From: Bacilli bacterium
GTDB lineage: Bacteria > Bacillota_I > Bacilli_A > RF39 > UBA660
Direction of reading: 5' to 3'
NCBI GenBank assembly: GCA_017405445.1
Contig: JAFRAK010000007.1
Location: 28,321-92,320, forward strand
DNA length: 64,000 nt
Under the pieces are notes generated by a model. It was not told the origin of the DNA and searched no databases. It saw only the letters and a program-made list of their open reading frames with translations. Shown piece after piece: positions 5,778-47,314 of this stretch. The translations under genes were made by a program, and so were the position numbers. How positions within the stretch are numbered: position 1 is the first letter of the stretch; every line of letters begins with the position of its first letter.

Positions 5778-8654
5778 ATGAACAAATATAAGAATAAAAA
5801 GAATCTTTATTTAATAATGTTATATTTAATACTATCCTTAGGAATCGTATATGCAATACTACATGCAAATTTACAAATCAATGGTACAGCAAAGATTCAG
5901 TCAAATAATTGGGATGTACATTTTGCTAATATAGAAGTAAATGAGTCAAGTGTAGCTCTTAATCAAGATGATAGTGGAGCAACAATAGATCCAGATAATA
6001 ATTGTAAAATAGATTTTGAAGTAACATTATCTCTACCAGGAGACTTCTATGAATTTACAGTGGATGTTGAAAATTCTGGGACAATAGATGCTATGATTGG
6101 AACAATTTCTAAGACATTAAAGATAAATAACACAATTATAGATACAATACCAGAGTACTTGAATTATTCGATAACATATGATGATGGAATAGAAATACAG
6201 GAGCATCATAAATTATCAGCAGGAGAAAGTGAAACCTATCTTGTTCGATTAGAGTTTAAAACAGATATCGAAGAATTACCAAGTGCCACATCAATAGAAA
6301 TGAGTTTAGAACCACAATATATTCAAGCAGATGAAACAGCCATACAAAAACCATTCAATGGATTTATTGATGGTAAGAGTTTCAATATTAAAGTTAAAAA
6401 ATTAGCTGGAGATGCCTCTGCAAAACAATATTCAGATAATACTAGTATTTCAGCTTTTGTGAGATCAAATAATCCACCAGATATTAATTCCATGACGGAA
6501 GATAATATCATTTCAACAGGAGAAGATGTTATTTATGCTTGGATACAAGGAAGTGCATTATACTATTATACAGAATGTGAAAGACCATTATTAAATCCAG
6601 ATGCTTCAGAGATGTTTCGTAATTTTCTTAATTTGTCATATTTACAATTAGATACAATTGATACATCTAAAACAAAAGATATGTCTTATATGTTTATGGA
6701 TACTGGAGATAATGCTACAGGAATATACTTACCAATTGCTAACTGGGATACTTCTAATGTAAAAAAGATGAGACTGATGTTTTATTCTATTGCAACATCA
6801 GCATCAAGTTTTTCACTAGACTTATCAAACTGGGATGTATCAAATGTTACAGATATGTATGGAGCTTTTGAATCGATTGCTTCAGATATGGCTGGATCAT
6901 TTTATTTAAATCTTACTGGCTGGAATACATCCAAGGTAGAAAATATGGACTACATGTTTATGCAAACAGCTTATAGAGCTTCAAAATGGGAAGTTGTAGG
7001 ATTGGCAAACTGGGATGTTTCCAACGTAACTAGTATGTATGAAATGTTCGATCAAACTGGTGGAAAAGATCCTAATTTTAATTTGGACTTATCAAATTGG
7101 AAACCTTTACAAGTAACTAATATGCAGCAATTGTTTTATTTGGCCGGAGTGAATGCGACAACGTTTAATCTTAATCTACAGAATTGGAATGCACCTAAAG
7201 TCACAAATATGAAAATGATGTTTCTGCAAGCAGGAAGCAAGTCCACTTCTTTCACAATAAATATGACAAATTGGAATACGCCAAGTTTAACAGATATTAG
7301 TGAGATGTTTAATTATATAGGACCTTCTGCAACTGATTTTAATATTATTGGTTTATCTAGTTTAGATACTCAAAACGTCACAAATATGTATAAAGTTTTT
7401 TATGGTTCAGGTCAACATGCAACATCTTATACATTAGATGTTGCAACATGGAACACTTCAAATGTTACAAATATGTATAGTACATTTGAGCAAAGTGGAT
7501 ATTATTCTCCAACTTATAATGTAGATATTTCAAACTGGAACACTTCAAATGTCACGAATATGAATAGGATGTTTTATAGTGCAGGAAGAAATGCCACAAC
7601 ATGGAGTATCGGAGATATATCAAACTGGAACACCTCAAAAGTAACTACAACGATAGAAATGTTTTCTTATGCTGGAAATAACACAACAACTTGGAATATA
7701 GGAGATATATCAAACTGGAACACCTCAAAAGTCACCAATATGTCTTCTATGTTTTATTGTGCAGGCTATAAAGCCACAACATTTCATTTAGACTTATCAA
7801 ATTGGAATACTTCTGAGGTTACTTATATGTCATCTATGTTCAACAGTGCAGGCTATAAATCCACAACATGGAGTATTGGAGATATATCAAACTGGGACAC
7901 CTCAAAAGTCACTGATATGTATAGTATGTTTGAGTATGCAGGATATAATGCCACAACATTTAATTTAGATTTATCAAATTGGAATACTTCTGAGGTTATT
8001 TATATGTCATCTATGTTCAACAGTGCAGGCTATAAAGCTACAACATGGAGTATTGGAGATTTATCAAATTGGGATACCTCAAAAGTCACTTCAATGAGAT
8101 CTATGTTTTCTTATGCCGGGTATAATGCCACAACATTTAGTTTAAATATATCAAACTGGAATACATCAAAAGTAACTGATATGTCATCTATGTTTTCTAA
8201 TGCCGGTTATAATGTCTCAACTTTTAATTTAAGTATATCAAATTGGAACACCTCAAAAGTAACTAATATGTATTCAATGTTTGAATATGCAGGAAGAAGT
8301 GCAACAACATGGAGTATTGGAGATTTATCAAACTGGGATACCTCAAAAGTAACTAATATGTCTTATATGTTTTATTATGCAGGGTATAGTTCCACAACAT
8401 GGAATAGTATAGGAACTTTAAAAGTATATGCCACGAATATTGGCAATATGTTCAACTATTGTATAAATGCAAAAGCTACATTAAAAATTTATAATAATCC
8501 TACAAATTATAGTGCTGTGTTTTCGAGTGCCGCTACAGCATCAGGTAGTTTAATTACCGTAGATTACACAAGTGTTGTTACAGATATTGATAAAATTATT
8601 GCGAAAAAGTCTAGTGATTCTAATGTTGTGAAAGGAAGTTTATTTACTGCATAG
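5778..8654 (+). CDS. Paralog-family surface protein A: conserved ~185-aa N-terminal signal-anchor plus domain, then long DUF285/BspA-type leucine-rich repeat array
   Basis: N-terminus about 65-75% identical to ORFs at 31519, 39625 and 45482. About 26-30-aa repeats of the form NWDTSKVTNMSSMF...AGYNATTF. Confidence 0.8.
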   Translation: MNKYKNKKNLYLIMLYLILSLGIVYAILHANLQINGTAKIQSNNWDVHFANIEVNESSVALNQDDSGATIDPDNNCKIDFEVTLSLPGDFYEFTVDVENSGTIDAMIGTISKTLKINNTIIDTIPEYLNYSITYDDGIEIQEHHKLSAGESETYLVRLEFKTDIEELPSATSIEMSLEPQYIQADETAIQKPFNGFIDGKSFNIKVKKLAGDASAKQYSDNTSISAFVRSNNPPDINSMTEDNIISTGEDVIYAWIQGSALYYYTECERPLLNPDASEMFRNFLNLSYLQLDTIDTSKTKDMSYMFMDTGDNATGIYLPIANWDTSNVKKMRLMFYSIATSASSFSLDLSNWDVSNVTDMYGAFESIASDMAGSFYLNLTGWNTSKVENMDYMFMQTAYRASKWEVVGLANWDVSNVTSMYEMFDQTGGKDPNFNLDLSNWKPLQVTNMQQLFYLAGVNATTFNLNLQNWNAPKVTNMKMMFLQAGSKSTSFTINMTNWNTPSLTDISEMFNYIGPSATDFNIIGLSSLDTQNVTNMYKVFYGSGQHATSYTLDVATWNTSNVTNMYSTFEQSGYYSPTYNVDISNWNTSNVTNMNRMFYSAGRNATTWSIGDISNWNTSKVTTTIEMFSYAGNNTTTWNIGDISNWNTSKVTNMSSMFYCAGYKATTFHLDLSNWNTSEVTYMSSMFNSAGYKSTTWSIGDISNWDTSKVTDMYSMFEYAGYNATTFNLDLSNWNTSEVIYMSSMFNSAGYKATTWSIGDLSNWDTSKVTSMRSMFSYAGYNATTFSLNISNWNTSKVTDMSSMFSNAGYNVSTFNLSISNWNTSKVTNMYSMFEYAGRSATTWSIGDLSNWDTSKVTNMSYMFYYAGYSSTTWNSIGTLKVYATNIGNMFNYCINAKATLKIYNNPTNYSAVFSSAATASGSLITVDYTSVVTDIDKIIAKKSSDSNVVKGSLFTA
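7794..8100 (+). repeat. Intragenic higher-order tandem duplication (period 177 bp, two LRR units) with near-identical DNA copies
   Basis: ttatcaaattggaatacttctgaggtt... block recurs at 7794 and 7971 with only a few substitutions over about 130 nt. Confidence 0.6.
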
Positions 8655-8717
8655 ACAAAAGAAGATTTATTTCTTCTTTTCTTTTTGATATAATAATAAA
8701 ACAAGTGAGATGATTAT

Positions 8718-9617: not shown

Positions 9618-9683
9618 AGGAAGTAGAAAAAAAGTCTATTTCCTTTTATTATGATATAATTAAAATGATATGGAGGGTTTTAT

Positions 9684-16285: not shown

Positions 16286-16401
16286 AATTTGAAAATGGAA
16301 TTGACTTTTTCAAATTTATACCTTATGATTAAAGTACGTGATAGTAAATATCACGTGAGTAATATCTCTAACGACTTTATGTTAGAGTATATTCAACCGA
16401 A

Positions 16402-16480
16402 CCCCCTGAAGACACTGTCGAGAGACAGTGTCACTTTTGTTTATAAGGGTTTTCGAAACTTTGAATTTTTTCTAGATACC
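16402..16480. repeat. Repeat R1: CCCCCTGAAG + 9-bp perfect inverted repeat GACACTGTC-gaga-GACAGTGTC + TTTATAAGGGTTTT + ttttctagata tail
   Basis: Seen directly. Near-identical copies at 17030 and 19926. C5 run is conspicuous in this AT-rich DNA. Confidence 0.85.
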
Positions 16481-16554
16481 ATACAGATACCAAAAATTCG
16501 AAAATATTTGAAAATTTTAACTGTTTATTTTAGTTTGTATGCGTTTATGGTATT

Positions 16555-16788: not shown

Positions 16789-16854
16789 TCTCTCAAACCT
16801 CCTCTCTATGATGGATTGGAGGTAGACACTCAACAACTAAATGTTCCTAAGATT

Positions 16855-16882
16855 AGTATATCAAATATATGTTCTATGTCAA
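16855..16882 (-). promoter_or_regulatory. Minus-strand sigma-A-type promoter (TTGACA-16 nt-TATACT) for the small-peptide gene
   Basis: Reverse complement of 16855-16882 reads TTGACAtagaacatatatttgaTATACT. Confidence 0.55.
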
Positions 16883-17029
16883 TATATGTTTCTAGATACC
16901 AAATCCAGATACTAATTGTAAAAAAACAAGATGTTTTTATAAACCTTAGTAAATTTAAAAAAATGAAAAAGCCTTATTTTATAAGACTTTAACTAATTAT
17001 TAAATTATTATGGGCTGGTTAATTAAATT

Positions 17030-17110: not shown

Positions 17111-17146
17111 TTCAAATATTTTGGTTATTTTATAAACTCTTTTTGT

Positions 17147-17155
17147 GTTATAATA
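17147..17155 (+). promoter_or_regulatory. Extended -10 promoter element TGtTATAAT
   Basis: Perfect TGnTATAAT. Would start a transcript near 17162. Confidence 0.45.
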
Positions 17156-17275
17156 AATATACAATTTACATTATCAAGAGCAAGGGAGAGAATTGGCTCA
17201 ATGATCTTGCACCAACCTATTTAGTTAGGTGGCAAAACCAACAAAGCATAGCTTTGAATGATAAATACGAATTAA

Positions 17276-17674: not shown

Positions 17675-18451
17675 ATGACTTATTATAGTAACAGGCAAAT
17701 TAATAAGATGGTAAAAGATGCAATAGATAATTATTGCCCTCCTTCAACATATAAAAATAAAATGCCAACTGAGGAAGAATTTGGCATACAAGATATTGAT
17801 ATTGATCAAATAGAAAAAGAAAGAAACATATTTATGAAAAAAAAGGATAAATATGAAACTCTGATGGGTGCTTCGTTTATTTTTGGTTGTTTGCCTGCAT
17901 GGATAGTTTCATCTTTAGTTGGGCTATTATTTGAATTGTCAGACAATGCTTACATGTGGTTGTTTTCCGCTTCTTGGCTATTTTTAATTGTATTCTTCGG
18001 TATAATGAGTAGTAAAAAATATCCAAATGAAAAAACGTATGAAAAAACAAAAAAATATACTCAAGCAATATCTCAATATTATTGGTGGCAGGAAAGAAAG
18101 AAAAAGGATTTTTGGATTAAACTAGATGGAAGAAAGTTTGAAATTGAGGTAGCAAGAATATTTAAAAAATTAGGATATAAGACTAAAATATGCAAACAAG
18201 GTGGAGATGAAGGAGTAGATTTAGAAATAGAAAAAGAAGGAGTTTTAGAGATAGTTCAATGCAAAGCACATAAAGCAAAGGTATCTCCTTCAGTAGCAAG
18301 AGATTTATTAGGTACAATGTTAAATAAAAAAGTTAACCATTCATATTTAGTAACGTTAAATGGTGGTACTACTGGAACTATTGATTTTTGTAAAAAGAAC
18401 AACATTACTTTATGGGATATAGATGACATTATTAGATATGACAAAATGTAA
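17675..18451 (+). CDS. Membrane-anchored (2 TM) protein with C-terminal Mrr-like restriction-endonuclease catalytic domain
   Basis: FEIEVARIFKKLGYKTKICKQGGDEGVDLEIE...EIVQCKAHKAKV matches the Mrr_cat pattern (GxDxGxD...QCK). Two hydrophobic helices at residues about 65-115. Confidence 0.7.
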   Translation: MTYYSNRQINKMVKDAIDNYCPPSTYKNKMPTEEEFGIQDIDIDQIEKERNIFMKKKDKYETLMGASFIFGCLPAWIVSSLVGLLFELSDNAYMWLFSASWLFLIVFFGIMSSKKYPNEKTYEKTKKYTQAISQYYWWQERKKKDFWIKLDGRKFEIEVARIFKKLGYKTKICKQGGDEGVDLEIEKEGVLEIVQCKAHKAKVSPSVARDLLGTMLNKKVNHSYLVTLNGGTTGTIDFCKKNNITLWDIDDIIRYDKM

Positions 18452-18484
18452 TCTATATTAATTATTTGTATGGAGGTGATAGCA

Positions 18485-19792
18485 ATGAGAAAATATGAGT
18501 TACAATTTGATGATGAAAGTATTAAAGATACTATCCACTCTAATACTTTAAATAGAAATGATAAACTATTTAATTTAATAAGATTATTAAATAGTATGAA
18601 TGAAAATCATATTATTTCTATTGATGGTGGTTGGGGAAGTGGAAAAACTTTTTTTATAAAGCAACTTATATATTTAAAAAACAATCATAATGATTGTAAT
18701 TTTCTAAAGCAAGATGTTCATGATATTATTACTGAATTTAATGAAAAATATATAGTAGTTTATTATAACGCTTGGGAAAATGATGATCATAATGATCCGA
18801 TAGAATCAATTATTTATAATATATTAAATATTTTACCAAAGTACTCAGATACATTTATTGATACATCAGAGTTATTTGATTTAATAAAGAAATCCTGGAT
18901 GAATTTTATTGAAGTTTCATCACTAGGAATTGTTAAAACTGAAGATGTCAAAGAAATGAAAACTTTTTCTGATTTGGCAGATTCTGTTAATACAATAGAG
19001 GAAAAGAAAAATGCAGTTTTGACTTTGTTAAGTCATATTACTAAGTATAAAAGAATTCTTTTAATAATTGATGAGTTGGATAGATGTAAACCAGATTTTG
19101 CTGTTAAATCAATTGAAACCATAAAACATTTTTATGATAGTCCTAAAATAAGTACAATTTTTGTTACAAATAATAATCAGTTATCTAAGACAATAAAAAA
19201 ATTTTATGGTAATGAATTCGATGGATATAGTTATTTGAATAAAATATACGATGCAGTTATACCTTTACATTGTGATAATATTGAGCAATACTCTAAAAAG
19301 TATTTAGATATTAATCATAGTACTAATCTTCCTGAAGATGTTTCTATTTTTCTATTTAAACATTATAACCTTTCATATCGTGAATGTAATAAATATATGT
19401 CTATGTATAGGTTAATTGAGCCTTATATCCATTGGAAAGATAAATTTTCTGAAAATAATAGTAATATTGATATTTCATGTATATTTGTTCCTATAGCTAT
19501 TGCTTTAAAGGTAAAAGATATATACTTATATGAAAGATTTATACAAAATGATGCTTCAGATATCTTAAAGGAACTTTTTGATGATGATAAATTAAATAGC
19601 ACCAATGGTAATTTATATAGATGGTTTTGTGAAATCTTCAAAGTTAAAGAAGGAATGGAATTATCTAATAGAGTTGCTAATAGATATAAGGAAATATTTA
19701 GTGTAGATAATGTTTATGATTATAATAAATATCCTTATATGGAAGCTATATCTATGCTAGGTAATCTTATTCATATTGAAGATGATAAATAA
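18485..19792 (+). CDS. KAP-family P-loop NTPase
   Basis: Walker A ISIDGGWGSGKTFF. Walker B plus KAP signature LLIIDELDRCKPDFAVK. GGAGGTGA RBS. Confidence 0.8.
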   Translation: MRKYELQFDDESIKDTIHSNTLNRNDKLFNLIRLLNSMNENHIISIDGGWGSGKTFFIKQLIYLKNNHNDCNFLKQDVHDIITEFNEKYIVVYYNAWENDDHNDPIESIIYNILNILPKYSDTFIDTSELFDLIKKSWMNFIEVSSLGIVKTEDVKEMKTFSDLADSVNTIEEKKNAVLTLLSHITKYKRILLIIDELDRCKPDFAVKSIETIKHFYDSPKISTIFVTNNNQLSKTIKKFYGNEFDGYSYLNKIYDAVIPLHCDNIEQYSKKYLDINHSTNLPEDVSIFLFKHYNLSYRECNKYMSMYRLIEPYIHWKDKFSENNSNIDISCIFVPIAIALKVKDIYLYERFIQNDASDILKELFDDDKLNSTNGNLYRWFCEIFKVKEGMELSNRVANRYKEIFSVDNVYDYNKYPYMEAISMLGNLIHIEDDK

Positions 19793-19925
19793 TAATTTTT
19801 AGGTTCTATTTAGGTTCTATAAATAGTAAAAAATCTTAAAAAATAGTAAAAAATTATAATACAGAGGGTTAACGATTATATTGATTTAACAGGTTTTAAT
19901 AAGCAAAAGGTCTATTAAATCGCGA

Positions 19926-20000
19926 CCCCCTGAAGACACTGTCGAGAGACAGTGTCACTTTATTTTATAATAGTTTGTGAAACTTTATATTTTTTCAAAT
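19926..20000. repeat. Repeat R3 (copy of R1)
   Basis: CCCCCTGAAGACACTGTCGAGAGACAGTGTCACTTTATTTTATAA...gaaactttatattttttc. Confidence 0.85.
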
Positions 20001-20357
20001 ACTAATTAAAAAAATTCACATTTTATATGTGAAGTTTTTTATTATACTATTTTTTCTTTTTATTGTTAATTGTTACATATGCTATACTACCTAATAAAAG
20101 TGATATAGCAACAATCATTACACATATTAGTTTTAAATTATCTGTATTTTCATTTGACTCTTCAATCGTATCAAAACTCATATTCTTATATGATATTAAT
20201 GGATTATATTCTTCATCATTATTACTAGATCCTAATAATAGTCCATTATCTTCTTCATTACTATTTTTATAACATAATAAAAAACATTTTTATGATTATT
20301 GTCTTTGACATTTTAGATTGTTGTAAATATAATAGAAATTTATAGGGAGGATTTATT

Positions 20358-20678
20358 ATGTTAGGAGAAAACATAGTAGCAGCGGTTATCGATGTAGATT
20401 GTTATCAAAATACAGAAGAAGAAATAAAATACGGTGGACCTAAATACTTAGGTTTTGAGTTTTGGGTTAGAAAAAAAGAAAAAGAATTTATGACAGAGTA
20501 TGTTAGATGCATGTTACATGAATATAATGTACCGATTATCAATATAAGAAATACAAAATCAAAAATAGTGAATGAAACAGAACTACATACTTTAGATCAA
20601 ATAAGAGAAGTAATAGAAAATAACAAAGATCACATGTTTGAAGATTACAAGTATTATAGTAAAAAAAGATGCAAATAA
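20358..20678 (+). CDS. Hypothetical 106-aa cytoplasmic protein
   Basis: GGGAGG RBS. Followed by terminator. Confidence 0.55.
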   Translation: MLGENIVAAVIDVDCYQNTEEEIKYGGPKYLGFEFWVRKKEKEFMTEYVRCMLHEYNVPIINIRNTKSKIVNETELHTLDQIREVIENNKDHMFEDYKYYSKKRCK

Positions 20679-20687
20679 TGACTAATA

Positions 20688-20714
20688 AAAACAGATAAAA
20701 ATCTGTTTTTATTA
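20688..20714 (+). terminator. Rho-independent terminator
   Basis: AAAACAGATaaaaATCTGTTTT followed by T-rich. Confidence 0.65.
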
Positions 20715-20826
20715 TGGAATAGTTTAGTTATAAAGAAGTTTTATTGTAAATAATAGTAAACTTATAAAAATTAATTTACTATCAATTATTATTATGAGAT
20801 AATGACAATAGGAGGGTTGTGAAAAA

Positions 20827-23800
20827 ATGGTCGAAGACAATGGATTGATAGAGAATTCTAAAAATAAAGGATTCAAACAAAAGAAAATAAAAGAATTTTT
20901 AGATGAATATGCCGATAGTAATCTAAAATTTACAGATGAAAGAATAAAGTTATGTTCATCAGATGATTTTAATGAATTAGCTGATGTTTTTAAAAGTTTA
21001 CAAAAACAAAAACATGCTCCTATTATGATTAGTCAAGTAGGAGGTTTTTACGTTATGGCTTCTTTGGCAGGCCATGCAGCAGATAATAGTAGAACCAAAC
21101 CAGTTTTACTTTTTTTTGATAAAAAAACGAATAATATTGCCAATGCTATTTACAATACTTTGTTAATGCAAGCATGTGATACAAAAGAAAGATATATCGC
21201 AACTTTATTTGGATTAGATGATAAAGATATTATTATAAGTTTAGATGAAAATAAATATATTGATTATATTGTACAAGTATTTAAAGAAAAAGAAGATACT
21301 ACAAAAATTGATAAGAAAAGAATTACTATAAAAGCATTACGAAAATATAAAGAAAATAAAGAAGAATATGATGAAATCATTGCGAAAGAACATGATTTGG
21401 CTCATAGAGCTATGAGAGAATTAGAAGAAAACTTTAATATTGCGAATATAGAAAAATATGCTGAATCAAAAAAATATGATAAAGAAAAACATCTTAATAT
21501 CATCAATAAAGCAATTGAAGGAAAACTAAGTAAAGAACATAAAGCATTATTTGAACCAATTGCCAAATCTATGACAGATTATTTAGCTAAAGGAGAAAAC
21601 TATTACGACTTAGTCAATTATTTATCTAGAGATATTCAAAAGAATCAAGAAAATCATATTTTATGTAATGATGATATTTATGAAGGATATAAATCATTAA
21701 TTAGTAAAAAAGGACAATCATCCGTAAAATTTGTACCAGGAGTAGATATTTCTACAGAAGCCGGTATTAATAAATTAGAAAAAATACTAACAAATGAAGG
21801 CTTCATTAATAAAAATGATAAACCTAATAATTTCCCAATAGACATTGCTTTTTTACCACATATAGAGACATTCCAAGGAGCTTATCCTTTTATCAAGAAA
21901 AATGTAGAAAAATATATCAGAGTTAACCGTGAAAATGCTAATAATTTTTCAATGCATCCAACTGCTTCATTACATGTAAGAACATATGATAGTATAGGAG
22001 CTAATTTTATAGAAGAAGAAAGAAAAAGTAGAAAGCCATTAACGCATCTAACTCCAATTGAAAAACAAGAAAAAGGATTCCCATTACTTACATTTATCGC
22101 AGGTGCCAATATTGGTAATATTTATAATAGTGAAGTAGATTTACAAAATGTTATTGATATGGCAATTGCAGATAAAGTAGATACAGTTTATATTCAAGGA
22201 TTAATCTATTCTACATACTATCATAATCAAACCAATAGGAGATTACTAGTAGATCCTAAATATGAGACATTAGATCAAAGATTAAAAGCAGCAAAGAAAC
22301 TTGTAAAAAAATTAAATGATAATGGAATTAAAGTAGTCTATCAAATGGGTGATGAAGAATATCACTTATATGAAGATATGTTTAAGATTTATACAAGAGA
22401 ACAAGGTGTAAAAGGAAATGATTTCTTAAGAAGAGATGATTTAAAATCAGCTCATGATTGGGTTAGACCAATTATTATTCAAGAATTGATTCCATATTTA
22501 ATTCGTAGTGGAGAAGATTTAACCAATTTCTATACAGATGAAGAAAGAGAAACAAGAGTTACAGAACTATGTAATGCTTTAAAGAATTATAAAGAAGGAC
22601 TACCTTTAGGAGAACTAGCAAAATATATTAAACCCGAATTTCTAAAAGATACAGATATGTTTAGAGTTGTTTATTCTACAATAGATAGATATGATAAAGA
22701 CCCAGCATTATCTGTAAACATTTTAAGTAATCCAAATTTTTCCACAAATGCACAATATTCCAATCCAACAGGAGGAATAATTAAAAACTTAAAAATCTAT
22801 CAAACAGGGGCACTTGGAAGTGGAAAACTTGCCCAAACTCCACAATTATTTGTAGATGGAAGACAAGGTATGATGTCCATTTCTTATCGTGGTGATCAAG
22901 TAACGATGAATGTACCACAAATGATAGATGATGCCAAATATATAGAACATCCTGAATTATTGTCGGGAATTAAAGAACATATAACTTCTGATCCAACTCA
23001 TGCTAGAGTAACAAAAGGAAGTACTAGACCAAATTATCCAGGTTCTTGGACTATTACTGGAGATGCTCGTGAGAAAATGACAATAGTTCCATATTGGAAA
23101 AGAGCAAGAGAAGTAATGGATTATGTTAATAAAACAGGAAAAGGATTAGAAGAAATTGATGTATTCTATTTAAATGATATACAAGCAGGATCATTAACAG
23201 AAAGATTAGAATATACGTTAAAAGCATTAGATCATTTTTACTATGATTATCCTGCACCTAAAGGAATCTGGGGAAATGGAGATTTTCAACAAGGATGGAA
23301 TTATTCTTCATTTGCTAATGAATCTAGACATTTAGGAACAATGAGTGTAGCAGGGCAAATGGAAGACTTTATTAAACTAATTCGTCCATGGATGAGAGAA
23401 TCATTTGGAGTAATTGATCCAACAGTATTTGTAGGAAAATACCCAGATTATAAAATTGATAAAGAAACAGCCGCAAAGATTATGACTCATCTAAGTAGTG
23501 TAAATGTGATTGATTCTAATAAAGGAATTAATCATAATACAGATTTAATTAAAGATGGTGTTGATTATAAAAAAGTAGATTTAAAATTACCTCCAGATTT
23601 ACAACCATATGAAGATACAATTCGTGAAAAATTATCTAATATTAAATTATTAAAATTTATCCATCTAGCAGAAGGAAATCATGAATATAATTCTGATTGG
23701 GATAAAAAAGGATTTAATTTAATTAAACTATTACGTCAAGAATTAAATGGTATGAAGGATTATTCTGGAGCTGATACAGAAATAGCTTTAAGTGAATTTA

Positions 23801-31026: not shown

Positions 31027-31452
31027 ATGATGTTAATGCCTAGAAATAATTTTGATTTACTAGATGATTTCTTTGAGGATCCATTCTTTCATAGAGAACC
31101 AGTTCCAACTCACATTAATCAACTAATGAAAACTGATATTCGTGAAAACGAAAATAGTTATATAATGGATGTTGATCTACCTGGATTTGAAAAAGAAAAT
31201 ATAAAAATAGATTTGGAGAATGGATATTTAAATATTCATGCAAAAATGGATAACTCTAAGAATGAAGAAGAAAAAGGAAAATTTATTAAGCGTGAAAGAT
31301 ACTTTGGAGAATGTTCAAGAAGCTTCTATGTAGGAGAAGACGTTAAAGAAGAAGAAATTAAAGCAGCATTTAATAATGGTATTTTAACACTTGAAGTTCC
31401 TAAAAAATCAGAAGAAAAAGAGCAAGAAAAAAAATACATTGATATTCAATAA
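31027..31452 (+). CDS. Hsp20/alpha-crystallin family small heat-shock protein
   Basis: Alpha-crystallin domain MDVDLPGFEKENIKIDLENGYLNIHAK...GILTLEVPK. Start chosen at ATG 31027 (9 nt after AAAGGAAG). Confidence 0.85.
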   Translation: MMLMPRNNFDLLDDFFEDPFFHREPVPTHINQLMKTDIRENENSYIMDVDLPGFEKENIKIDLENGYLNIHAKMDNSKNEEEKGKFIKRERYFGECSRSFYVGEDVKEEEIKAAFNNGILTLEVPKKSEEKEQEKKYIDIQ

Positions 31453-31476
31453 GACAGAGAAATCTGTCTTTTTTAT
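31452..31476 (+). terminator. Rho-independent terminator
   Basis: AGACAGAgaaaTCTGTCT followed by T6. Confidence 0.7.
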
Positions 31477-31518
31477 TTCTTCTAAATATGATAAAATAAT
31501 TACGAAGGTAGAATTATT

Positions 31519-33225
31519 ATGAAAAGAAACAAGAAACAAATCACAACGTATTTTATATTATTTAGTCTTCTTCTTATAGGAGTAGTGTATGCCATATTAC
31601 AAGCTAATCTACAGATTAATGGTACAGCCAAGATTCAGGCAAATACGTGGAATATATACTTTGATAATATTCAAGAGAATGAGAATAGTGTAGTAATAGG
31701 AAATGATGATCAAGAAGCAGTAATAGATCCAGAAAACAATTGTAAAGTCGATTTTAGTGTTTCATTAGCTATTCCAGGAGATTTCTATGAGTTTACTGTG
31801 GATGTTGTAAATGCTGGAACGATTGATGGAATGATAGATAGTATCAATAATAGTTTTAAAATAAATGGAGTAGATTCTGATATTCCGGACTATTTGGATT
31901 ATACAATAACATATTCAACAGGTGTATCAATTGAGCCAAAACATAAATTAAATCATAATTCTACAGAAACATATAAAGTAAGAGTAGAATATAAAAATGA
32001 CATAGAAGAATTGCCTAGTGCAACGACTCTAACAATGTCATTTGAAATTAACTATGTACAAGCTGATGATACAGCAATTATAGTTCCATTTAATATCTAT
32101 AATGTATTTCAATCTGAATTAGATAGTAATAGTGGTTTAGTACTAGAATATACTGGTACTCATCAAGACTCTTTTACACAAACAGGAAATGAAAAAATAT
32201 ATCACTGGTATGCTGATAGTGACGATAATGCAAATATCATTTTAGAGAAATGGAATGTTATTTTTGCAGGATACTGCTGGGAAATGATTCGTACTACAGA
32301 TACAGGAGGAGTAAAATTGACCTATAATGGAGTACCTGTTGATGGAAAATGTACTGCAACAGGAGCAGACCAACAAATAGGTACATCAAAAATGAATACA
32401 TCAGGGAATTCACCTGCTTATGAAGGATACATGATACCAGAGAGTTCTAAGATAAAAAAATATACAGCTGCATCTGCAGTTAGTGGTAGTCTATACGGAA
32501 CAGGAGTTACTTGGGATGGTACGAATTATACTTTGACAAATACCTCTACATCTTATAATAGTACTCATCATTATACTTGTGCTAATACAACAGGAATTTG
32601 TTCAACAGTAAGATACTATTACTATTATATTTGTTATATTACATTAAGTGGAGGAGAAACAATTGAACCAGTTCTTACAAATATGTTAAATAGTAGTGAT
32701 GTAAACTACAGTAATTCAGTACTTAAAACATATCTAGAAACTTGGTATCAAAATAATATGACAACATATGCCTCAAAACTAGAAGATACCATATTCTGTA
32801 ATGATAGAACCTTAACAAATCTATCATCAGCTGGTTGGAATCCAAATGGAGGAGGAACATACACTTATTTGAAATTTAAAAGTTTATCTATTCAAAATGA
32901 TTTAAGTTGTGAAACTGTAACAGATCAATTTAGTACACAGAATCCAAGTGCTCTACTAACATATCCAGTAGGACTAATGACTACAACGGAATCTAATTTG
33001 TTAAACAATAAAAACTTAAGAAAAACGGGTAATGTTTATTGGCTATTTTCACCATCTGCATATACTGATGGTATGGCCAACAATTATTATGTAAAAGCTG
33101 ATGGAACTTTTGATGATTATGGTGCTAGTCAAACAACTGGCGTTCGTCCAACAATATCTCTAAAACCAGGTACCAAAGTATCATCAGGAGATGGGTCCAA
33201 AAACAATCCATATATTGTGGAATAA
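31519..33225 (+). CDS. Paralog-family surface protein B (conserved N-terminal domain, unique Cys-containing C-terminal region ending GVRPTISLK...GDGSKNNPYIVE)
   Basis: N-terminal 190 aa align with A, C and D. C-terminal motif shared with ORF 53553. Confidence 0.8.
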   Translation: MKRNKKQITTYFILFSLLLIGVVYAILQANLQINGTAKIQANTWNIYFDNIQENENSVVIGNDDQEAVIDPENNCKVDFSVSLAIPGDFYEFTVDVVNAGTIDGMIDSINNSFKINGVDSDIPDYLDYTITYSTGVSIEPKHKLNHNSTETYKVRVEYKNDIEELPSATTLTMSFEINYVQADDTAIIVPFNIYNVFQSELDSNSGLVLEYTGTHQDSFTQTGNEKIYHWYADSDDNANIILEKWNVIFAGYCWEMIRTTDTGGVKLTYNGVPVDGKCTATGADQQIGTSKMNTSGNSPAYEGYMIPESSKIKKYTAASAVSGSLYGTGVTWDGTNYTLTNTSTSYNSTHHYTCANTTGICSTVRYYYYYICYITLSGGETIEPVLTNMLNSSDVNYSNSVLKTYLETWYQNNMTTYASKLEDTIFCNDRTLTNLSSAGWNPNGGGTYTYLKFKSLSIQNDLSCETVTDQFSTQNPSALLTYPVGLMTTTESNLLNNKNLRKTGNVYWLFSPSAYTDGMANNYYVKADGTFDDYGASQTTGVRPTISLKPGTKVSSGDGSKNNPYIVE

Positions 33226-37187: not shown

Positions 37188-39620
37188 GTGAAATGTATGT
37201 GGAGCGTATTATACTTATTTCAATCATTGCTATTTGTATGTTTATTAGTAGTTGTCTTTTTATCAAAAAAGACTATAGAATCTGAAGAAAATAAATTATT
37301 TAATATTTTAACTATTGAAGAAATAATTGTCTTAATAACAGAAATATCTCTTCATTTTTCAACAAAATATGCAGGCACGGAAAGTATCCTAACCATATTG
37401 TTAGCAAAAGTCTTTTTAATTGAGATATTTTCTTGGTTTTGTATTTTCTCAATTTATACATATTATGTTACAAGAGCAAAGAAAATTGAAAATAAAGAAA
37501 AAAGAGAATCTACATATAATATTGTCACTTCAATTATTAGTGGCTTAAATATTGTAGGAAGTTTATTGTTTTTAGTATTACCAATTAAAATAATGATGAA
37601 TGGAGAAGCAAAATATAGTTATGGGCCAGCAGTTAATGCATTAAAAGTTTTCTTGGGAATTGGTTTAACTTTTTGGCTAATCCTATTATTAATCAATCGA
37701 AAAGATATGAAACAAAAGCAATTTGCGCCAATCTATTCTGTTATGCTGTTATTAATTGTTAATCTAATCCTACAAACAATTAATCCATCTATTTTAATTG
37801 CTTCTTCAACCATGGCATTTACTTTATTTATCATGTTCTTTACCATTGAAAATCCAGATTTAAAAATGATTGCTGAATTAGAAGTAGCAAAAGAACAAGC
37901 AGAGAAGGCCAATAATGCAAAAACAGATTTCTTATCAAATATGTCTCATGAAATTCGTACACCATTAAATGCTATAGTTGGATTTAGTGATTGTATTATG
38001 GATAGCAATGATATTACAGAAGCGAAAGAAAATGCTAAAGATATTGTAAATGCAACTCAAACGTTACTTGAAATTGTAAATGGAATACTCGATATTTCAA
38101 AAATAGAAGCAGGAAAACTAGAAATAATAAATTCAAAATATAATCCAGAAGAAACTTTCATGGAACTTGCTAGATTAATCTCTACAAGAATGAGAGAGAA
38201 AGGACTTGATTTTACTTATTATATTGCTCCAGACATTCCAAAAACACTTTACGGAGATTATGCGAATATTAAAAAAGTAGTTACAAACTTATTGAGTAAT
38301 GCTTGTAAATATACAGATAGTGGATTTGTTAGATATGAAGTTAATTGTGTAAATATGAAAGACTACACAAGATTAATTATTTCCGTAGAAGATTCTGGAA
38401 GAGGAATAAAAAAAGACAGTGTTGAGAAATTATTTACAAAATTTCAAAGATTAGAAGAAGATAGAAATACAACAATTGAAGGAACAGGATTAGGACTTGC
38501 CATTACAAAACAATTAACAGAATTAATGGGAGGAAAAGTAATTGTTCATACAGTTTATGGAAAAGGATCTAAATTTACAATTGTCTTAAATCAAAAAATA
38601 ACAGAACCTGATATCAAAAATACAAGAAAAGTAAAAGATACACTTGATTTGTATAATATAAAAATATTAGTAGTAGATGATGCATTTACGAATTTAAAAG
38701 TTGCGACTAAACTATTAGAAAAATTCAATGCAAATTGTATAGAATTATGTGATAGTGGTTTTGAATGTATTGATAGAATCAAAGCTGGAAAAAAATATGA
38801 TGTAATTCTATTAGATGATATGATGCCTAAAATGAGTGGAGTATTAACTCTTCAAGAACTAAAAAAACTTCCAGATTTTCATATCCCAACCATTGCATTA
38901 ACAGCTAATGCTATAACAGGAATGAGAGAAAAATATATTCAAGATGGATTTGATGATTTTTTAGCAAAACCAATTGAGAAAGAAGAATTAATACGTGTCT
39001 TAAATCAAGTCCTTGGTAGATGTGTAACAGAAGAATTAGAAATTGTGTCTGAAACAAAGGAAGAAGAGAAAGAAGAAAATAAAAATGAGATTATCCCAGT
39101 AGAAGATAATATTGAACAGATTTTAGGAGATCAAGTTAAATTAAAGATGAAAGAACAAATCAATGAAAAAGAATCCATAGAAATTGTGGAAGAAAAAAAG
39201 AAAGATAGTAATATTCTTCCAGTTGTGGATATTAACACTGAAATACCAAATAAAGAGTCATATGATGAAAAATATTTACAAGAAAATGGAGTAGATTTAG
39301 AAAAAGCACTTGAACTGTTAGGTGATATGGATATGTATAATTCTACGATTCAAGATTTTAAAGAAGAAATGGAAGAAAAATGGAATCGTATTACAGATTA
39401 TAAAAATCAAAAAGATATGGAAAATTATGCAATAGATGTTCATTCCCTAAAAAGTGATTGTAAATATTTAGGTTTTATGACTCTAGCAGATATTGCTTAT
39501 AATCATGAATTAAAAAGTAAAAAAAATGATCAAAAATATATAGATAATCATTTTGAAGAATTAGAAAATGAATTTAACAAAGTAAAAGAAATTGTAAATA
39601 ATTATGTAAATAACAGGTGA
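37188..39620 (+). CDS. Hybrid sensor histidine kinase / response regulator with C-terminal Hpt domain and polytopic N-terminal sensor
   Basis: HisKA H-box [12 protein letters not shown]. HATPase G-boxes. REC domain ILVVDDAF...[12 protein letters not shown]. Hpt [12 protein letters not shown]. Confidence 0.85.
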
Positions 39621-39624
39621 TTAT

Positions 39625-40923
39625 ATGTATCATAAGTATAAACAAACTACAACTTATTTTATAATGATAAGTTTACTTCTAATAGGAGTAGTCTATGCTA
39701 TTCTACAAGCAAATTTACAAATCAAGGGAACTGCTAAAATAAAAGAAAATACTTGGGATATTCATTTTAATAATATAGAGGTCAATGAAAACTCTGTAAG
39801 TATAGGAGAAAATGATTCCCATGCTTCAATTGATCCAGAAAATAATTGTAAAGTAGATTTTGAAGTAACGTTATCTCTTCCAGGAGACTTCTATGAGTTT
39901 ACTGTAGATGTAGTAAATTCTGGAACAATTGATGGTATGATAGGAGAGTTAAATAAAACTCTAAAAGTAAATGGAGAATCAGTACAAGAAACTCCTGACT
40001 ATCTAAACTATTCTGTAACTTATGCAGATGGAATGGAAATACTAGAAAATCATAAATTATCTGCAGGAACTACTGAAACATTTCTAGTACGTTTAGAGTT
40101 TAAAACTGATATCGAAGAATTACCTGATGCAACAACAGTGATAACTACATTAGAACCTCAATATATTCAAGCAGATTCTAGTGCCAGAATTGTTAGAGTA
40201 AATTTTGCGACAGACTCTTGGAATGATATTATTGATGATTATACCGCTGGTAAAACCAAATATTTAAAAATAGCAATGGAAGCGGGAACAACAAGAGAAG
40301 TTAGGTTAGATATGGATAATGATGGAACAGTTGATACAACCTCACATGTTAGAATTGCGAATTTGAGTACTCCAGCAGAATGTGCGACAACAGGATTTAG
40401 TCAAACAGCATGTGGTTTTGTCATAGAATTTGCAGATATTATTTCAACATATCCTATGAAAAACGATAGTAACAATTCTGGAAGTTGGGAAAATTCAACA
40501 ATGAGAACTTATGTTAATGGTATAATATTTAATTCTCTTCCAACTGCATTAAAGAATGTAGTAATTAATACAAAAGTAGTGTCGGGATATGGATATTTAG
40601 ACTCATTAAAATCAAATTATGTAACAACAGACAAATTGTTTTTATTATCTTCAAAAGAAGTACACGGGAATTCATACTCATCTTTTGATACTTCGAGTGA
40701 TTTATCAAGACAAACCGATTATTACAAGCATTTAGAAATTAATAGTAATAATAATACTGGAACAATTAAAAAGTATAATAATGAAAATGCAAATTGGTGG
40801 TTACGATCACCAAGCAGTAATGGAAATTGGGCTTTTTCTATTACCACCAACAATGGCTATCATTCTTGTAGTAGTTCTGAAAATAACAATGGAGTTTCTC
40901 CAGCCTTCCGTATTGCTGAATAA
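39625..40923 (+). CDS. Paralog-family surface protein C (conserved N-terminal domain, unique C-terminal region ending NNGVSPAFRIAE)
   Basis: Starts 5 nt after the kinase stop, using GGTGA within the kinase 3' end as RBS. Likely co-transcribed. Confidence 0.8.
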   Translation: MYHKYKQTTTYFIMISLLLIGVVYAILQANLQIKGTAKIKENTWDIHFNNIEVNENSVSIGENDSHASIDPENNCKVDFEVTLSLPGDFYEFTVDVVNSGTIDGMIGELNKTLKVNGESVQETPDYLNYSVTYADGMEILENHKLSAGTTETFLVRLEFKTDIEELPDATTVITTLEPQYIQADSSARIVRVNFATDSWNDIIDDYTAGKTKYLKIAMEAGTTREVRLDMDNDGTVDTTSHVRIANLSTPAECATTGFSQTACGFVIEFADIISTYPMKNDSNNSGSWENSTMRTYVNGIIFNSLPTALKNVVINTKVVSGYGYLDSLKSNYVTTDKLFLLSSKEVHGNSYSSFDTSSDLSRQTDYYKHLEINSNNNTGTIKKYNNENANWWLRSPSSNGNWAFSITTNNGYHSCSSSENNNGVSPAFRIAE

Positions 40924-41479: not shown

Positions 41480-42631
41480 ATGGAAGAAGATATAATGATG
41501 GATAGAAAAAACGTATTAACAATGAAACTATTACATTATTTCATTACAGAAAAGAATTATAATCCTATCATTTTACAAGGTGTTGAAAATGAAATTTGGT
41601 TAGAAAACCTTGAAGAAAATTGTAAAGTAGTCCGTATAGTTTCCAACTATATACATAATGATGAACAATTTGACTTTGATGTTTTTAAGACAAAAAGAAT
41701 TGTAAAAAAGATTAAGAAAAAAACATTATCTTTGAGTATTAATGTAATGAGTATTTTCTTAGATATGAGTGATAATGTAAAAGAAGATATTAATATAGAT
41801 CCAAAATTAATATGTATTAATGTAAAAGATGAAAAAGATATTCAAAATAGTTCTATTATTAAAAATATATTTCCAGATTTATCAAAAAAAATGGTATATA
41901 CAGAAAATGGTGTAGAATTATTTATGAAAATTACTAGTGATATTAATAAACATAATAAAGAAGATGCAAAAAAATTAGAAGAAATATTTAAAAGTAAAGT
42001 TCCATATATAACTTATTTTTTAATTATTATTAATTGTATATTTTTCTTTGTACCAATATTATTTGGACAATATGATGATATATTAAGTAAGTTCTGGATA
42101 TATGGACCTAAGATACGTGGAGGAGAATATTATAGATTACTTACTGGTATTTTCTTACATGGAAGTATTATGCATTTACTATTAAATTGCTATTCTCTAT
42201 ATATTATTGGTTCTCAAATTGAAAGTTTCTTAGGAAAATGGAAATATATTATTATTTATTTATTCTCTGGAATAACAGGAGCACTCCTTTCAATAACATT
42301 AAATGGAATGATTCCATCAATTGGAGCTAGTGGAGCAATCTTTGGACTTATGGGATCTTTATTATACTTTGGATATTATTATAGAGTATATTTAGGAAAC
42401 GTAGTAAAATCTCAAATCATTCCATTAATTGTATTAGAACTTTCGATGGGATTCTTATCAACGGGAGTTGATAACTTTGCTCATATAGGAGGTTTAGTCG
42501 GTGGAATTATTATCACTATGGCTCTAGGAGTAAAAGATAAAACAACGAATTTTGAAAAAGTAAATGGATGGATTGTTACTGGTATATTTTTCATATTCCT
42601 GATATTCATGGCATTTGTTTTAGCAAACTAA
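41480..42631 (+). CDS. Rhomboid-family intramembrane serine protease with N-terminal cytoplasmic extension
   Basis: GASGAIFGLMGS (GxSG) and AHIGGLVGG catalytic His in 6-TM core. Confidence 0.8.
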   Translation: MEEDIMMDRKNVLTMKLLHYFITEKNYNPIILQGVENEIWLENLEENCKVVRIVSNYIHNDEQFDFDVFKTKRIVKKIKKKTLSLSINVMSIFLDMSDNVKEDINIDPKLICINVKDEKDIQNSSIIKNIFPDLSKKMVYTENGVELFMKITSDINKHNKEDAKKLEEIFKSKVPYITYFLIIINCIFFFVPILFGQYDDILSKFWIYGPKIRGGEYYRLLTGIFLHGSIMHLLLNCYSLYIIGSQIESFLGKWKYIIIYLFSGITGALLSITLNGMIPSIGASGAIFGLMGSLLYFGYYYRVYLGNVVKSQIIPLIVLELSMGFLSTGVDNFAHIGGLVGGIIITMALGVKDKTTNFEKVNGWIVTGIFFIFLIFMAFVLAN

Positions 42632-43685: not shown

Positions 43686-43711
43686 TATCTGTTATTTTGG
43701 AGGTTGTAAAG

Positions 43712-44782: not shown

Positions 44783-44792
44783 AAGGTGTAGT

Positions 44793-45380: not shown

Positions 45381-45399
45381 AAATACTTCTTTTTTTTTT
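45373..45399 (+). terminator. Rho-independent terminator
   Basis: AGAAGTAgaaaTACTTCT followed by T9. Confidence 0.7.
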
Positions 45400-45481
45400 G
45401 TCAAATTTTACATATTGTTTTAAAATGAATAAAAGAAGAGTAATCAAACTATGATACAATAAAATCAAAGGTAGAGAAAAT

Positions 45482-47314
45482 ATGAGAAGAAACAAGGAAC
45501 AAGTAACAATTTATTTTATATTATTTAGTTTAATTCTTATAGGGGTAGTCTACGCTATTTTACAAGCAAATCTACAAATTAATGGAATAGCGAAGATTAA
45601 ATCAAATACTTGGGATATTCATTTTGATAATATTCAGATTAATTCTAATAGTGTTTCTATTGGAGATGATGATTCAGCTGCAACAATTGATCCAAATGAT
45701 ACTAGTAAAGTTGATTTTTCTGTTACTTTATCTACTCCAGGAGACTTTTATGAATTTACTGTTGATGTAGTAAATGCAGGAACAATTGATGGAATGATTG
45801 AATTATTAACACAAGAGATGAAAGTAAATAATGAAGTAGTACAAAAAACACCAAATTATTTAAACTATATTGTTACTTATGAAGATGATTCTTCCATTTT
45901 ACTAAAACACTTATTGGAAGCCGGAGAAACATTAACATATAAAGTAAGATTAGAGTTCAAAACAGATATAGAAGAATTACCTGAAGCCGCAACAATCAAC
46001 TCTTCATTTGGAGTACAATTTGTACAAGCAGATGATACTGCAATAAAAAAGAGACCATATTATGCCTGTACTTTTGATGGAGATTTAGTACAAGGAGCAG
46101 AATATACAAATGGACAATATACATATCGGTATATGCAAGAATATGGCACTTGGAATTCTAGTTCTCAGTCTTATGAATGGAGAAATATAGATAATGATGG
46201 CTGGGGAGTCCATTTATCAGACACTTCTTCAACTGATTCTGTTACTTCAAGATTATGTACTTCTATCAATGATAAGCCTATTGTTTCTATGAGTTATATG
46301 TTTTATGAAAGTAAATCCACAAGCGTTGATACTACAAGTTTTAATACATCAAATGTAACAAATATGATTAATATGTTTAATGGATGTAGTAGTCTAACTG
46401 ATATTGATGTAACTAAATTTGATACATCTAACGTAACAAATATGATTAATATGTTTAATGGATGTAGTAGTCTAACTGATATTGATGTAACTAAATTTGA
46501 TACATCTAACGTAACAAATATGTTTGGAATGTTTGCAAATTGTAGTAATCTTAATGATATTGATGTGACTGAATTTGATACATCTAACGTAACAAATATG
46601 TCTGGAATGTTTGCAAATTGTAGTAATCTTAATGATATTGATGTGACTGAATTTGATACATCTAAAGTAACAAATATGAATGGAATGTTTTCAAATTGTA
46701 GTAATCTTAATGATATTGATGTGACTGAATTTGATACCTCTAATGTAACAAATATGGGTGGAATGTTTTCAGGTTGTAGTAGTTTAACAGAATTAGATTT
46801 AAGTGGTTTTGATTTAAGAGGAGCATCTTCCTTTGGTGCAATTGCAGGAAATATTTTTTATGGAACTTCTTCTTTAAAAAAACTAAATCTAAGTAATATG
46901 AAACTTCCACCTGATATGTCTCATGCTATATTTAGAAGTGGTGCAGCAAGTTCTTCACCAATAGAAGAAATAGATGTTACTGGATGGGATTTAAGTAATA
47001 CTACAAATGTTTCTGGAATGTTAGGCAGTTATGGTTCTAATGGATTTGGAGGAACAGGATTAAAAAGAATAATAGGTCTTGATACCTGGGATACTTCTCA
47101 TATTACAAATATGTCTTATATGTTTCAAGGACTATCTTCTTTAACAACATTAGACCTAAGTAGTTTTAATACTTCTAATGTCACTAATACAGATAACATG
47201 TTTGATGGATGTACATCAGTAACTACTGCTTATGGTAGAACTAATTCTGATATCACAAAATTTAATGCATCAAGTAATAAACCATCTAACATTACATTTA
47301 TACCAAAACCTTAA
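45482..47314 (+). CDS. Paralog-family surface protein D: conserved N-terminal domain plus DUF285/BspA-type LRR array
   Basis: N-terminus aligns with A, B and C. Repeats FDTSNVTNMxxMFxxCSxLxDIDVT. Confidence 0.8.
   Translation: MRRNKEQVTIYFILFSLILIGVVYAILQANLQINGIAKIKSNTWDIHFDNIQINSNSVSIGDDDSAATIDPNDTSKVDFSVTLSTPGDFYEFTVDVVNAGTIDGMIELLTQEMKVNNEVVQKTPNYLNYIVTYEDDSSILLKHLLEAGETLTYKVRLEFKTDIEELPEAATINSSFGVQFVQADDTAIKKRPYYACTFDGDLVQGAEYTNGQYTYRYMQEYGTWNSSSQSYEWRNIDNDGWGVHLSDTSSTDSVTSRLCTSINDKPIVSMSYMFYESKSTSVDTTSFNTSNVTNMINMFNGCSSLTDIDVTKFDTSNVTNMINMFNGCSSLTDIDVTKFDTSNVTNMFGMFANCSNLNDIDVTEFDTSNVTNMSGMFANCSNLNDIDVTEFDTSKVTNMNGMFSNCSNLNDIDVTEFDTSNVTNMGGMFSGCSSLTELDLSGFDLRGASSFGAIAGNIFYGTSSLKKLNLSNMKLPPDMSHAIFRSGAASSSPIEEIDVTGWDLSNTTNVSGMLGSYGSNGFGGTGLKRIIGLDTWDTSHITNMSYMFQGLSSLTTLDLSSFNTSNVTNTDNMFDGCTSVTTAYGRTNSDITKFNASSNKPSNITFIPKP
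46355..46744 (+). repeat. Five consecutive 78-bp tandem repeats inside gene D. Units 1 and 2 are 100% identical. Units 3-5 differ at a few positions
   Basis: Direct comparison of 46355-46432 vs 46433-46510 (identical) and following units. Confidence 0.85.

Follow-up and report, generated by a model that had tools for sequence, protein, structure and literature searches.

Fibres of the TasA superfamily, whose subunits are joined by donor strands, have been studied so far as scaffolds of biofilm matrices in Bacillus and in extremophile archaea. In the account given in PMC11821415, which cites Bohning et al. (2022), TasA fibres are assembled by donor-strand exchange. AbpX, from Pyrodictium abyssi, is a further donor-strand fibre protein of this superfamily; it has homologs in Bacillota and Chloroflexota, and the N-terminal stretch of its monomer has been reported to be unstructured (bioRxiv 10.64898/2026.01.04.697558). 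The abpX loci of archaea and Bacillota encode a major subunit, minor subunits and tips of varied fold, together with a signal peptidase I with ten transmembrane segments (TIGR02228), a DUF5305 accessory protein, LPXTG or SLH anchors and, frequently, histidine kinases (bioRxiv 10.64898/2026.01.04.697558). The present work concerns four paralogous genes, called A to D, found in a stretch of 64,000 nt (the window) from an uncultured gut or rumen Bacilli bacterium of GTDB lineage RF39, UBA660 (GenBank assembly GCA_017405445.1, contig JAFRAK010000007.1, positions 28,321 to 92,320 of the forward strand). We propose that their products are probably fibre subunits with adhesin domains, and that the surface fibre to which they belong is related to the AbpX clade of the TasA superfamily.

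In the mechanism that we favour, each of the four proteins would be exported by Sec and cut after a conserved G-x-x-Y-A by a dedicated polytopic signal peptidase I of the archaeal/SipW type, acting with a DUF5305 partner; in this genome, both genes would be located outside the window. Cleavage would bare an amphipathic N-terminal extension, ILQANLQI(N/K)GTAKI, which could act as a donor strand by entering the beta-sandwich of a neighbouring subunit. The four proteins would thereby be joined to a fibre made mostly of stand-alone copies of a module of about 180 amino acids (aa). In some relatives, this fibre would start from a sortase-anchored copy that lacks the extension; the shaft and then cargo-bearing subunits would follow, and proteins that have only the extension might cap the free end. 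Since A to D carry both the extension and the sandwich, they could be placed anywhere along the fibre. The ligand-binding heads would be their C-terminal domains, namely DUF285 leucine-rich repeats (LRR) in A and D and C-type-lectin-like domains in B and C.

The four open reading frames (ORFs) from which an earlier note on this DNA started are present on the + strand, which carries almost all the genes of the window (G+C content about 27%). Gene A (5778..8654, 958 aa) encodes a leader, the extension and a beta-sandwich module that reaches to about nt 6350, followed by about 12 DUF285 LRRs. Its leader and extension (5778..5909), which contain the candidate peptidase site and donor strand, consist of residues 1-26, ending in G-I-V-Y-A, and of ILHANLQINGTAKIQSNN. 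The same order of leader, extension and module is found in B (31519..33225, 568 aa; module to about nt 32088), which ends in a Cys-containing domain; in C (39625..40923, 432 aa; module to about nt 40194), which ends in a DUF6273 C-type-lectin-like domain; and in D (45482..47314, 610 aa; module to about nt 46051), which ends in DUF285/LRR repeats. The leaders of these three comprise residues 1-25, ending in G-V-V-Y-A in B, and the corresponding leader and extension segments lie at 31519..31647 (B, extension ILQANLQINGTAKIQANT), 39625..39753 (C, ILQANLQIKGTAKIKENT) and 45482..45610 (D, ILQANLQINGIAKIKSNT), all on the + strand.

When each of the four N-termini was compared with the window by tblastn, they shared 58-71% identity over 168-195 aa (E 1e-69 to 1e-85), values that exclude a chance likeness, and no fifth copy of the module was found in the window. 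The shared region announced in the earlier note is therefore real, although its figure of 65-75% identity over about 190 residues was slightly high. The motifs that it quoted, GVVYAILQANLQINGTAKI, PGDFYEFTVDV.N.GTID and DIEELP, are all present. As had also been described, the likeness stops at about residue 190 and A and D continue with DUF285 repeats.

The shared part is composed of a Sec-type leader ending in G-V-V-Y-A, an extension of 18 residues and the beta-sandwich. It is the extension that has been best conserved among the four paralogs: its identity is 0.81, while the hydrophobic leader reaches 0.70, the sandwich 0.61 and the part after it 0.35. An AlphaFold2 model that included the leader, built from an alignment of 76 sequences, consists of a helix (residues 2-33), a linker of low confidence and a beta-sandwich (residues 46-182). 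The mature form of C was modelled from residue 26, that is, past the predicted V-Y-A cleavage; its residues 1-10 and 11-20 have predicted local distance difference test (pLDDT) values of 47 and 79 and adopt no secondary structure, while the sandwich reaches 92-98. The mean pLDDT of the two AlphaFold models was 90.9 (the one with the leader) and 92.4. The best-conserved segment of the shared part is also the one that the monomer model leaves without structure.

The same pattern is found outside the window. The sequence G-Y-A-x-L-x-x-x-L-x-I-x-G is present in 113 of 122 module-family ORFs from other genomes, with L7, I9 and G11 conserved at 94%, 92% and 94%, and a Trp at the start of the sandwich at 95%. 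At position 2 of the extension, 84% of the family ORFs have Leu and 13% Ile; position 4 is Ser, Thr or Ala, the latter in all four window proteins. When extensions are compared at matched core identity (0.55-0.7), those of one genome resemble each other more (0.65) than those of different genomes do (0.44), which fits co-evolution with a single shared partner.

Direct searches of Pfam, NCBIfam and PDB sequence profiles gave no family match for the N-terminal module. A 'Bacillolysin' chain (2kpn), the only PDB sequence match of the module profile (E 0.045), was treated as noise. Profile-profile comparison with hhalign, however, suggests a relation of the family to AbpX: the complete profile, leader and extension included, aligns over 142 columns with a probability of 86.9% (E 4e-6), and the core, with leader and extension removed, over 97 columns with a score of 34.2, a probability of 68.5% and a P value of 4.6e-5. 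That score lies above those of the nulls: shuffling of columns gave 12.4 +/- 2.5 (maximum 19.1), shuffling of blocks of 7 columns 17.9 +/- 3.3 (maximum 27.4), and reversal of the alignment 13.0. As a positive control, AbpX was compared with TasA, giving a probability of 74% and a P value of 2.8e-5. The scores of module against AbpX are close to those of this control, so the link of the module to AbpX is comparable with that of AbpX to TasA; they provide no direct link to TasA.

Details of the sequence agree with such a link. With IGLTYA|QWSETLSLSATIST, its cleavage site and donor strand, AbpX aligns with IGxGYA|xLSTTLNINGTxxI of the family. In both, a Y-A signal peptidase I site precedes an amphipathic extension that is unstructured in monomer models. 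The sandwich that follows is acidic in both, about 160 aa long and marked by PG....FT...N.GTI; AbpX has an isoelectric point (pI) of 4.05 and 14.7% Asp+Glu, against 4.05-4.20 and 16.4-18.2% in the window modules. The loci of relatives, described below, also recall those of abpX, with a polytopic TIGR02228 peptidase, DUF5305, minor subunits, varied tips, LPXTG-type anchors and nearby histidine kinases. There are clear differences, too. The window family resembles AbpX at the profile level only (25% identity), and its extension has Leu instead of an aromatic clamp at position 2 and lacks an acidic residue at position 4. Therefore, it has no counterpart of the acidic residue with which the AbpX donor strand takes part in binding calcium. 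Besides, the family, as sampled, is limited to uncultured Bacilli-type metagenome-assembled genomes (MAGs) from gut and rumen, it has many paralogs per genome, mostly adhesin-fused and dispersed from the core locus, and some members consist of the extension without the sandwich.

The earlier note had likened the module to TasA/CalY proteins (camelysin, peptidase M73) with a SipW-cognate signal. Some features speak for membership in that family: the PGD-x5-F-x4-N-G motif of the module aligns to KPGD...FENNGSL of TasA, the peptidase that neighbours the module in relatives scores 69 bits on the SipW model, and AbpX, to which the module is tied, is itself tied to TasA. However, the Pfam scan gave no PF12389 (Peptidase_M73) match in A-D at E <= 1, and the NCBIfam scan found no SipW-cognate signal on the four N-termini at E <= 10. 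An hhalign comparison of the module with 90 TasA/CalY proteins of PF12389 reached a probability of 2% (P 0.02) over 27 columns that cover only the PGD..N.G motif, and Foldseek found nothing below E 1e-3 for the module model in PDB. The SipW score of the relatives' peptidase is far under the cutoff of 190 bits, while the cutoff of TIGR02228 is passed. By these comparisons, membership in TasA/CalY appears already refuted at the family level, and we regard it as very improbable. The likeness to the tapA-sipW-tasA system of Bacillus subtilis is one of organization: a secreted beta-sandwich subunit, a dedicated signal peptidase of the ER/archaeal type encoded alongside, an N-terminal strand proposed to link subunits and, in TapA, an accessory protein that is no full subunit but supplies a strand, with which the extension-only proteins of our relatives can be compared. 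No family-level homology with the window module is detectable, SipW has two transmembrane helices instead of a polytopic domain, and TasA lacks fused adhesin domains and is encoded in one operon at one locus, in contrast to a dispersed multigene family.

The family to which A-D belong is very large. A profile search of 1.84 billion cluster representatives (50% identity) returned 1,902 matches at E <= 1e-30 and 6,093 at E <= 1e-3, the latter number being perhaps slightly inflated, since the profile held some positions of the C-terminal extension of one subfamily. The matches range from about 200 to more than 900 aa in length; among the homologs listed none is named, and hardly any has a Pfam annotation. 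With one peptide pattern, PGDFYEFT, 169 relatives were retrieved from a collection of species-representative genomes in which the window's species is not represented (best identity to the window, 53%). All 169 belong to uncultured gut or rumen MAGs, labelled as Bacilli, Bacillales, Erysipelotrichaceae, Firmicutes or Tenericutes, or to Clostridium sp. CAG:417. From 25 genomes, 78 loci with 125 module ORFs of 88-1,658 aa were collected, with up to 15 module copies among the loci of a single MAG.

The genes around stand-alone homologs suggest how the module may be processed. For instance, the gene for P0116, a stand-alone module of 179 aa, is followed by those for a peptidase of 384 aa, a DUF5305 protein (38 bits, gathering threshold 29) and two larger proteins with leader and extension. 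The peptidase combines a polytopic N-terminal half, for which a rough count by hydropathy gives 7-10 hydrophobic segments, with a signal peptidase domain at the C-terminus, and it carries the motifs SxSMxP, HRL and GDAN. Its score on TIGR02228 is 93 bits, above the cutoff of 51.85, whereas the SipW model, with a cutoff of 190, gives 69 bits. The order of one to five modules of about 180 aa, a polytopic peptidase of about 385 aa, a DUF5305 protein of about 200 aa and then proteins combining module or extension with cargo was seen in 9 of the 25 sampled genomes and in the metagenome loci L001, L005 and L088. In L059 and L083, tandem arrays of cargo-less modules of about 180 aa adjoin the peptidase. 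Of 29 short modules, 21 are located within 6 kb of the peptidase, compared with 10 of the 91 long fused forms (Fisher p 6e-10). Dispersed cargo-bearing paralogs such as A-D are thus the norm in this family.

A complete set was found in L088, where a subunit of 191 aa, the peptidase and a DUF5305-like protein are accompanied by a module plus lectin-like protein of 422 aa and by a further copy of 234 aa. The latter begins with an ordinary signal peptide, contains a spacer but no extension, and ends in a sortase-type anchor (NVQTGD, transmembrane segment, KKK). The core locus of L001 (1-12489; identical to L052, MAG RGIG5784) stands directly 3' of the gene for a glycine-rich protein of 7,725 aa with ALK_LTK_GRD repeats, and it includes a paralog of 226 aa with a proline-rich spacer between leader and sandwich. 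In the peptidase homolog of this locus (388 aa), none of the SxSMxP, HRL and GDAN motifs is present and the TIGR02228 score is only 33 bits; the enzyme is therefore possibly inactive.

Several observations weigh against a fibre of the AbpX type. The hhalign probabilities of the module against AbpX, 61-87%, are suggestive and lie under the usual confidence level of 90-95%, and the AbpX profile contained only the 5 sequences obtained by a search for AbpX homologs. The fold matches of the sandwich are generic only. A relative of 480 aa, P0129, consists of three tandem modules joined by linkers of about 10 residues behind one degenerate leader and extension; since no extension stands between them, the sandwich can fold without a donated strand and also serves as a repeated stalk unit. 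This architecture is compatible with strand exchange in the style of TasA, but also with a simple stalk. Moreover, tblastn searches of the window and Pfam scans of its ORFs of at least 150 aa revealed no peptidase, DUF5305 protein, stand-alone subunit or anchor copy in the 64 kb, and none of these four lies in the 10 kb past its 3' end.

In the main rival explanation, the proteins are monomeric adhesins held by their signal sequence, with the leader uncut and its helix in the membrane, the sandwich acting as a stalk that lifts the adhesin, and the conserved motif serving, for example, for targeting or for contact with a membrane partner. In favour of such anchored monomers, residues 2-33 form a single long helix in the AlphaFold model, the sandwich folds confidently alone and matches generic folds, modules can repeat in tandem like stalk domains, as in P0129, and the genes are dispersed with no peptidase nearby. 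Nevertheless, monomers would leave unexplained why, in many genomes, DUF5305 and a dedicated signal peptidase are encoded beside a stand-alone module, why the extension that follows the leader is more conserved than the fold, and why the motif matches the cleavage and donor-strand region of AbpX. Nor would they account for the anchor copy, in which an ordinary signal peptide has replaced leader and extension and a sortase-type C-terminus has been gained. In addition, V-Y-A conforms to the -3/-1 rule of signal peptidase I. We consider an anchorage of this kind unlikely.

Other classes of surface protein were considered for A-D and rejected. Their C-termini (...GSLFTA, ...NPYIVE, ...AFRIAE and ...TFIPKP) lack the sorting signal, transmembrane segment and basic tail that would be expected of sortase-assembled pilins and other sortase substrates, and an LPXTG-type C-terminal signal was only found in the anchor-type relatives P0088 and P0099. 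They are not lipoproteins, as no lipobox Cys is present. They are not type IV or Tad class III prepilins either: the leader has a basic n-region, an h-region and G-V-V-Y-A, and shows neither G|F/M-T-L-x-E nor the G|xxxxEY of Flp.

A further explanation starts from the distribution of the extension itself: ten ORFs were found in which leader and extension, without the module, are fused directly to the same types of cargo. Leader and extension could then be a sorting tag with no role in polymerisation, which the peptidase would cut and perhaps couple to covalent or non-covalent attachment to the envelope, in the manner of exosortase or rhombosortase, the sandwich being merely the commonest first domain behind it. 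The large polytopic domain of the peptidase (7-10 hydrophobic segments) agrees with such a tag, as do the genome-specific flavours of the extension, expected under co-evolution with one enzyme. On the other hand, a tag would not explain the tandem cargo-less modules of about 180 aa beside the peptidase in L059 and L083, the anchor copy that retains the sandwich and loses the tag, or the homology to a proven donor-strand polymer. A pure sorting function seems to us quite unlikely. The proposal that the extension acts as a donor strand of AbpX-like subunits is preferred here, and it keeps part of what the earlier note had advanced, namely a strand-donating module served by a dedicated peptidase and fused to adhesins. 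The AbpX alignment and the loci of relatives with peptidase and DUF5305 agree with that idea, and an archaeal/SipW-type peptidase does occur beside the stand-alone modules of relatives, but not in the window, and strand donation is something we infer.

The C-terminal parts of A-D had been called hypervariable. They are not so in the mutational sense; they belong to different domain families, each of which recurs at 35-59% identity in other genomes, behind leader, extension and module or behind leader and extension alone. DUF285 was detected by Pfam in A (E 1.7e-197, 12 stretches) and in D (6.4e-58, together with LRR_8), and DUF6273 in C (E 5e-20) and, below threshold, in B (2.4e-4). The DUF285 array of A shares 37% identity over 679 aa with an extension-only protein. 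The domain of B is 59% identical to that of a module protein of 566 aa from L011 and resembles a protein of 452 aa from L005 (E 6e-43); it matches extension-only proteins of 452-476 aa and is of a type present in the tip proteins of related loci. The domain of C matches module proteins of 423-443 aa, two of which are encoded inside a core locus, and architectures like that of C (422-433 aa) are found in relatives inside peptidase loci. A protein of 695 aa, P0234, combines the module with a Cys-rich region and a C-terminal stretch that by eye is like a Hint/intein domain (GCLSGETEVEVYD...).

DUF6273 has been modelled as C-type-lectin-like and is a known target of diversity-generating retroelements (DGR) (PMC10743442). 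In the window there is no reverse transcriptase, and no DGR template repeats match the 3' ends of A-D, the matches of A and D being their own internal DUF285 repeats. In the relatives L005 and L065, however, the C-terminus of a module protein of 912 aa is a DGR variable region, with all its mismatches at template adenines. The retroelement adjoins the fibre locus in both (L005:16370-19500): in L005 the variable end lies at about 16370-16482 and a downstream copy at about 16801-16913, followed by bAvd and the reverse transcriptase, with a third copy at 17111-17222. The DGR-diversified tentaclins of phages (PMC10743442) share DUF6273 with C and the variable region with L005 and L065, but the known DUF6273 targets of DGR are phage tail proteins, not fibre subunits.

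Regarding their genomic context, A-D are scattered among housekeeping genes, as the earlier note had pointed out; their neighbours encode iPGM, PFOR, RecG, a pseudouridine synthase, YceG, an O-methyltransferase and U32 peptidases. Gene C had been assigned to the operon of a hybrid histidine kinase. The kinase gene (37188..39620, + strand; HisKA, HATPase_c, REC and Hpt domains) indeed ends 4 nt upstream of C, no terminator is predicted between them, and the two probably share one transcript. The arrangement of kinase and then C recurs on an independent contig, and a functional tie between the kinase and the module family is possible. About 550 nt 3' of C, past a TspO gene on the opposite strand, there is a gene for a rhomboid-family intramembrane protease of 383 aa (41480-42631), which is a candidate for a role in the processing of A-D.

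In contrast to C, genes B and D look like independent transcription units. Both have a similar -10 region and ribosome-binding site upstream, and the regions 31451-31518 (B) and 45398-45481 (D) are alike, reading TATGATA[A/C]AATAA ... AAGGTAGA ... ATG. A terminator-like hairpin (31451-31470) precedes the upstream region of B. No distinctive upstream element shared by the paralogs was found, and a promoter scan remained at background level.

Two further groups of genes in the window are of possible interest. A second surface or secretion cluster occupies positions 51982-63728 and continues past the window in L085:10800-20800. It encodes DUF4352-like and Bact_surface_Ig-like proteins, a sortase (55379-56209), a secreted protein of 893 aa, DUF5411, RcpC/CpaB, a T2SSE/Tad-type ATPase and two polytopic proteins and, in L085, small ORFs, TrbL_4, a TraC-like protein, a VirB4/DUF87-type ATPase and SpoIID. 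As a whole, the cluster resembles a Tad or type IV secretion-like apparatus. The region 17675-24348, which carries genes for an Mrr-type restriction endonuclease (17675-18451), a KAP-family P-loop NTPase (18470-19792) and a protein of 1,173 aa without Pfam match (20827-24348), may be a defence island amid housekeeping genes.

Besides AbpX and TasA, two other fibre systems invite comparison. The Tat-fimbriae of haloarchaea have subunits TafA/C/E, the peptidase TafD and the DUF5305 protein TafG (PMC11821415, PMC12337348). As in the loci of our relatives, a signal peptidase and DUF5305 are encoded beside small sandwich subunits that are thought to donate strands, and tip and anchor are separate. 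The Tat-fimbriae, compared here by description and not by sequence, use the Tat pathway instead of the Sec-type leaders without twin arginine of the window family, and their subunits have no known adhesin fusions of the window kind. The chaperone-usher adhesins FimH and PapG also combine a pilin with a lectin domain, but these are Gram-negative proteins that depend on chaperone and usher and have the lectin N-terminal and the pilin C-terminal; homology is not implied.

The type of system to which A-D would belong, AbpX-like loci with tips and anchors, is already described. What is new is a very large subfamily in uncultured gut and rumen Bacilli that, despite its size, has neither a Pfam nor an NCBIfam model. 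Also new are the heavy expansion of paralogs, the fusion of adhesin cargo to the subunit, the scattering of the genes over the chromosome, the extension-only cargo proteins and, in relatives, the diversification of a cargo domain by DGR. To these could be added a putative donor strand that, from its residues, appears to dispense with the calcium clamp. It is conceivable, although we hold this wider view only tentatively, that gut and rumen Bacilli carry a large plug-and-display adhesin system. In such a system, a portable cassette of leader and donor strand, with or without the AbpX-like sandwich, would be processed by one dedicated peptidase and would mount binding domains (LRR, C-type-lectin-like, some of them DGR-diversified, and giant repeats) on a TasA-superfamily fibre, with extension-only caps, sortase anchors lacking the extension and dozens of dispersed paralogs as a combinatorial repertoire.

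If this were true, a major group of uncultured gut and rumen Bacilli would use fibre assembly as a chassis for modular repertoires of adhesins, some of them hypervariable through DGR. The AbpX/TasA scheme would be extended to subunits with fused cargo and to donor strands that lack the calcium clamp, and leader plus strand would provide a portable tag for the annotation of surface proteomes. For these commensals with reduced genomes, it would also open a concrete way to understand attachment to hosts, to particles or to other microbes.

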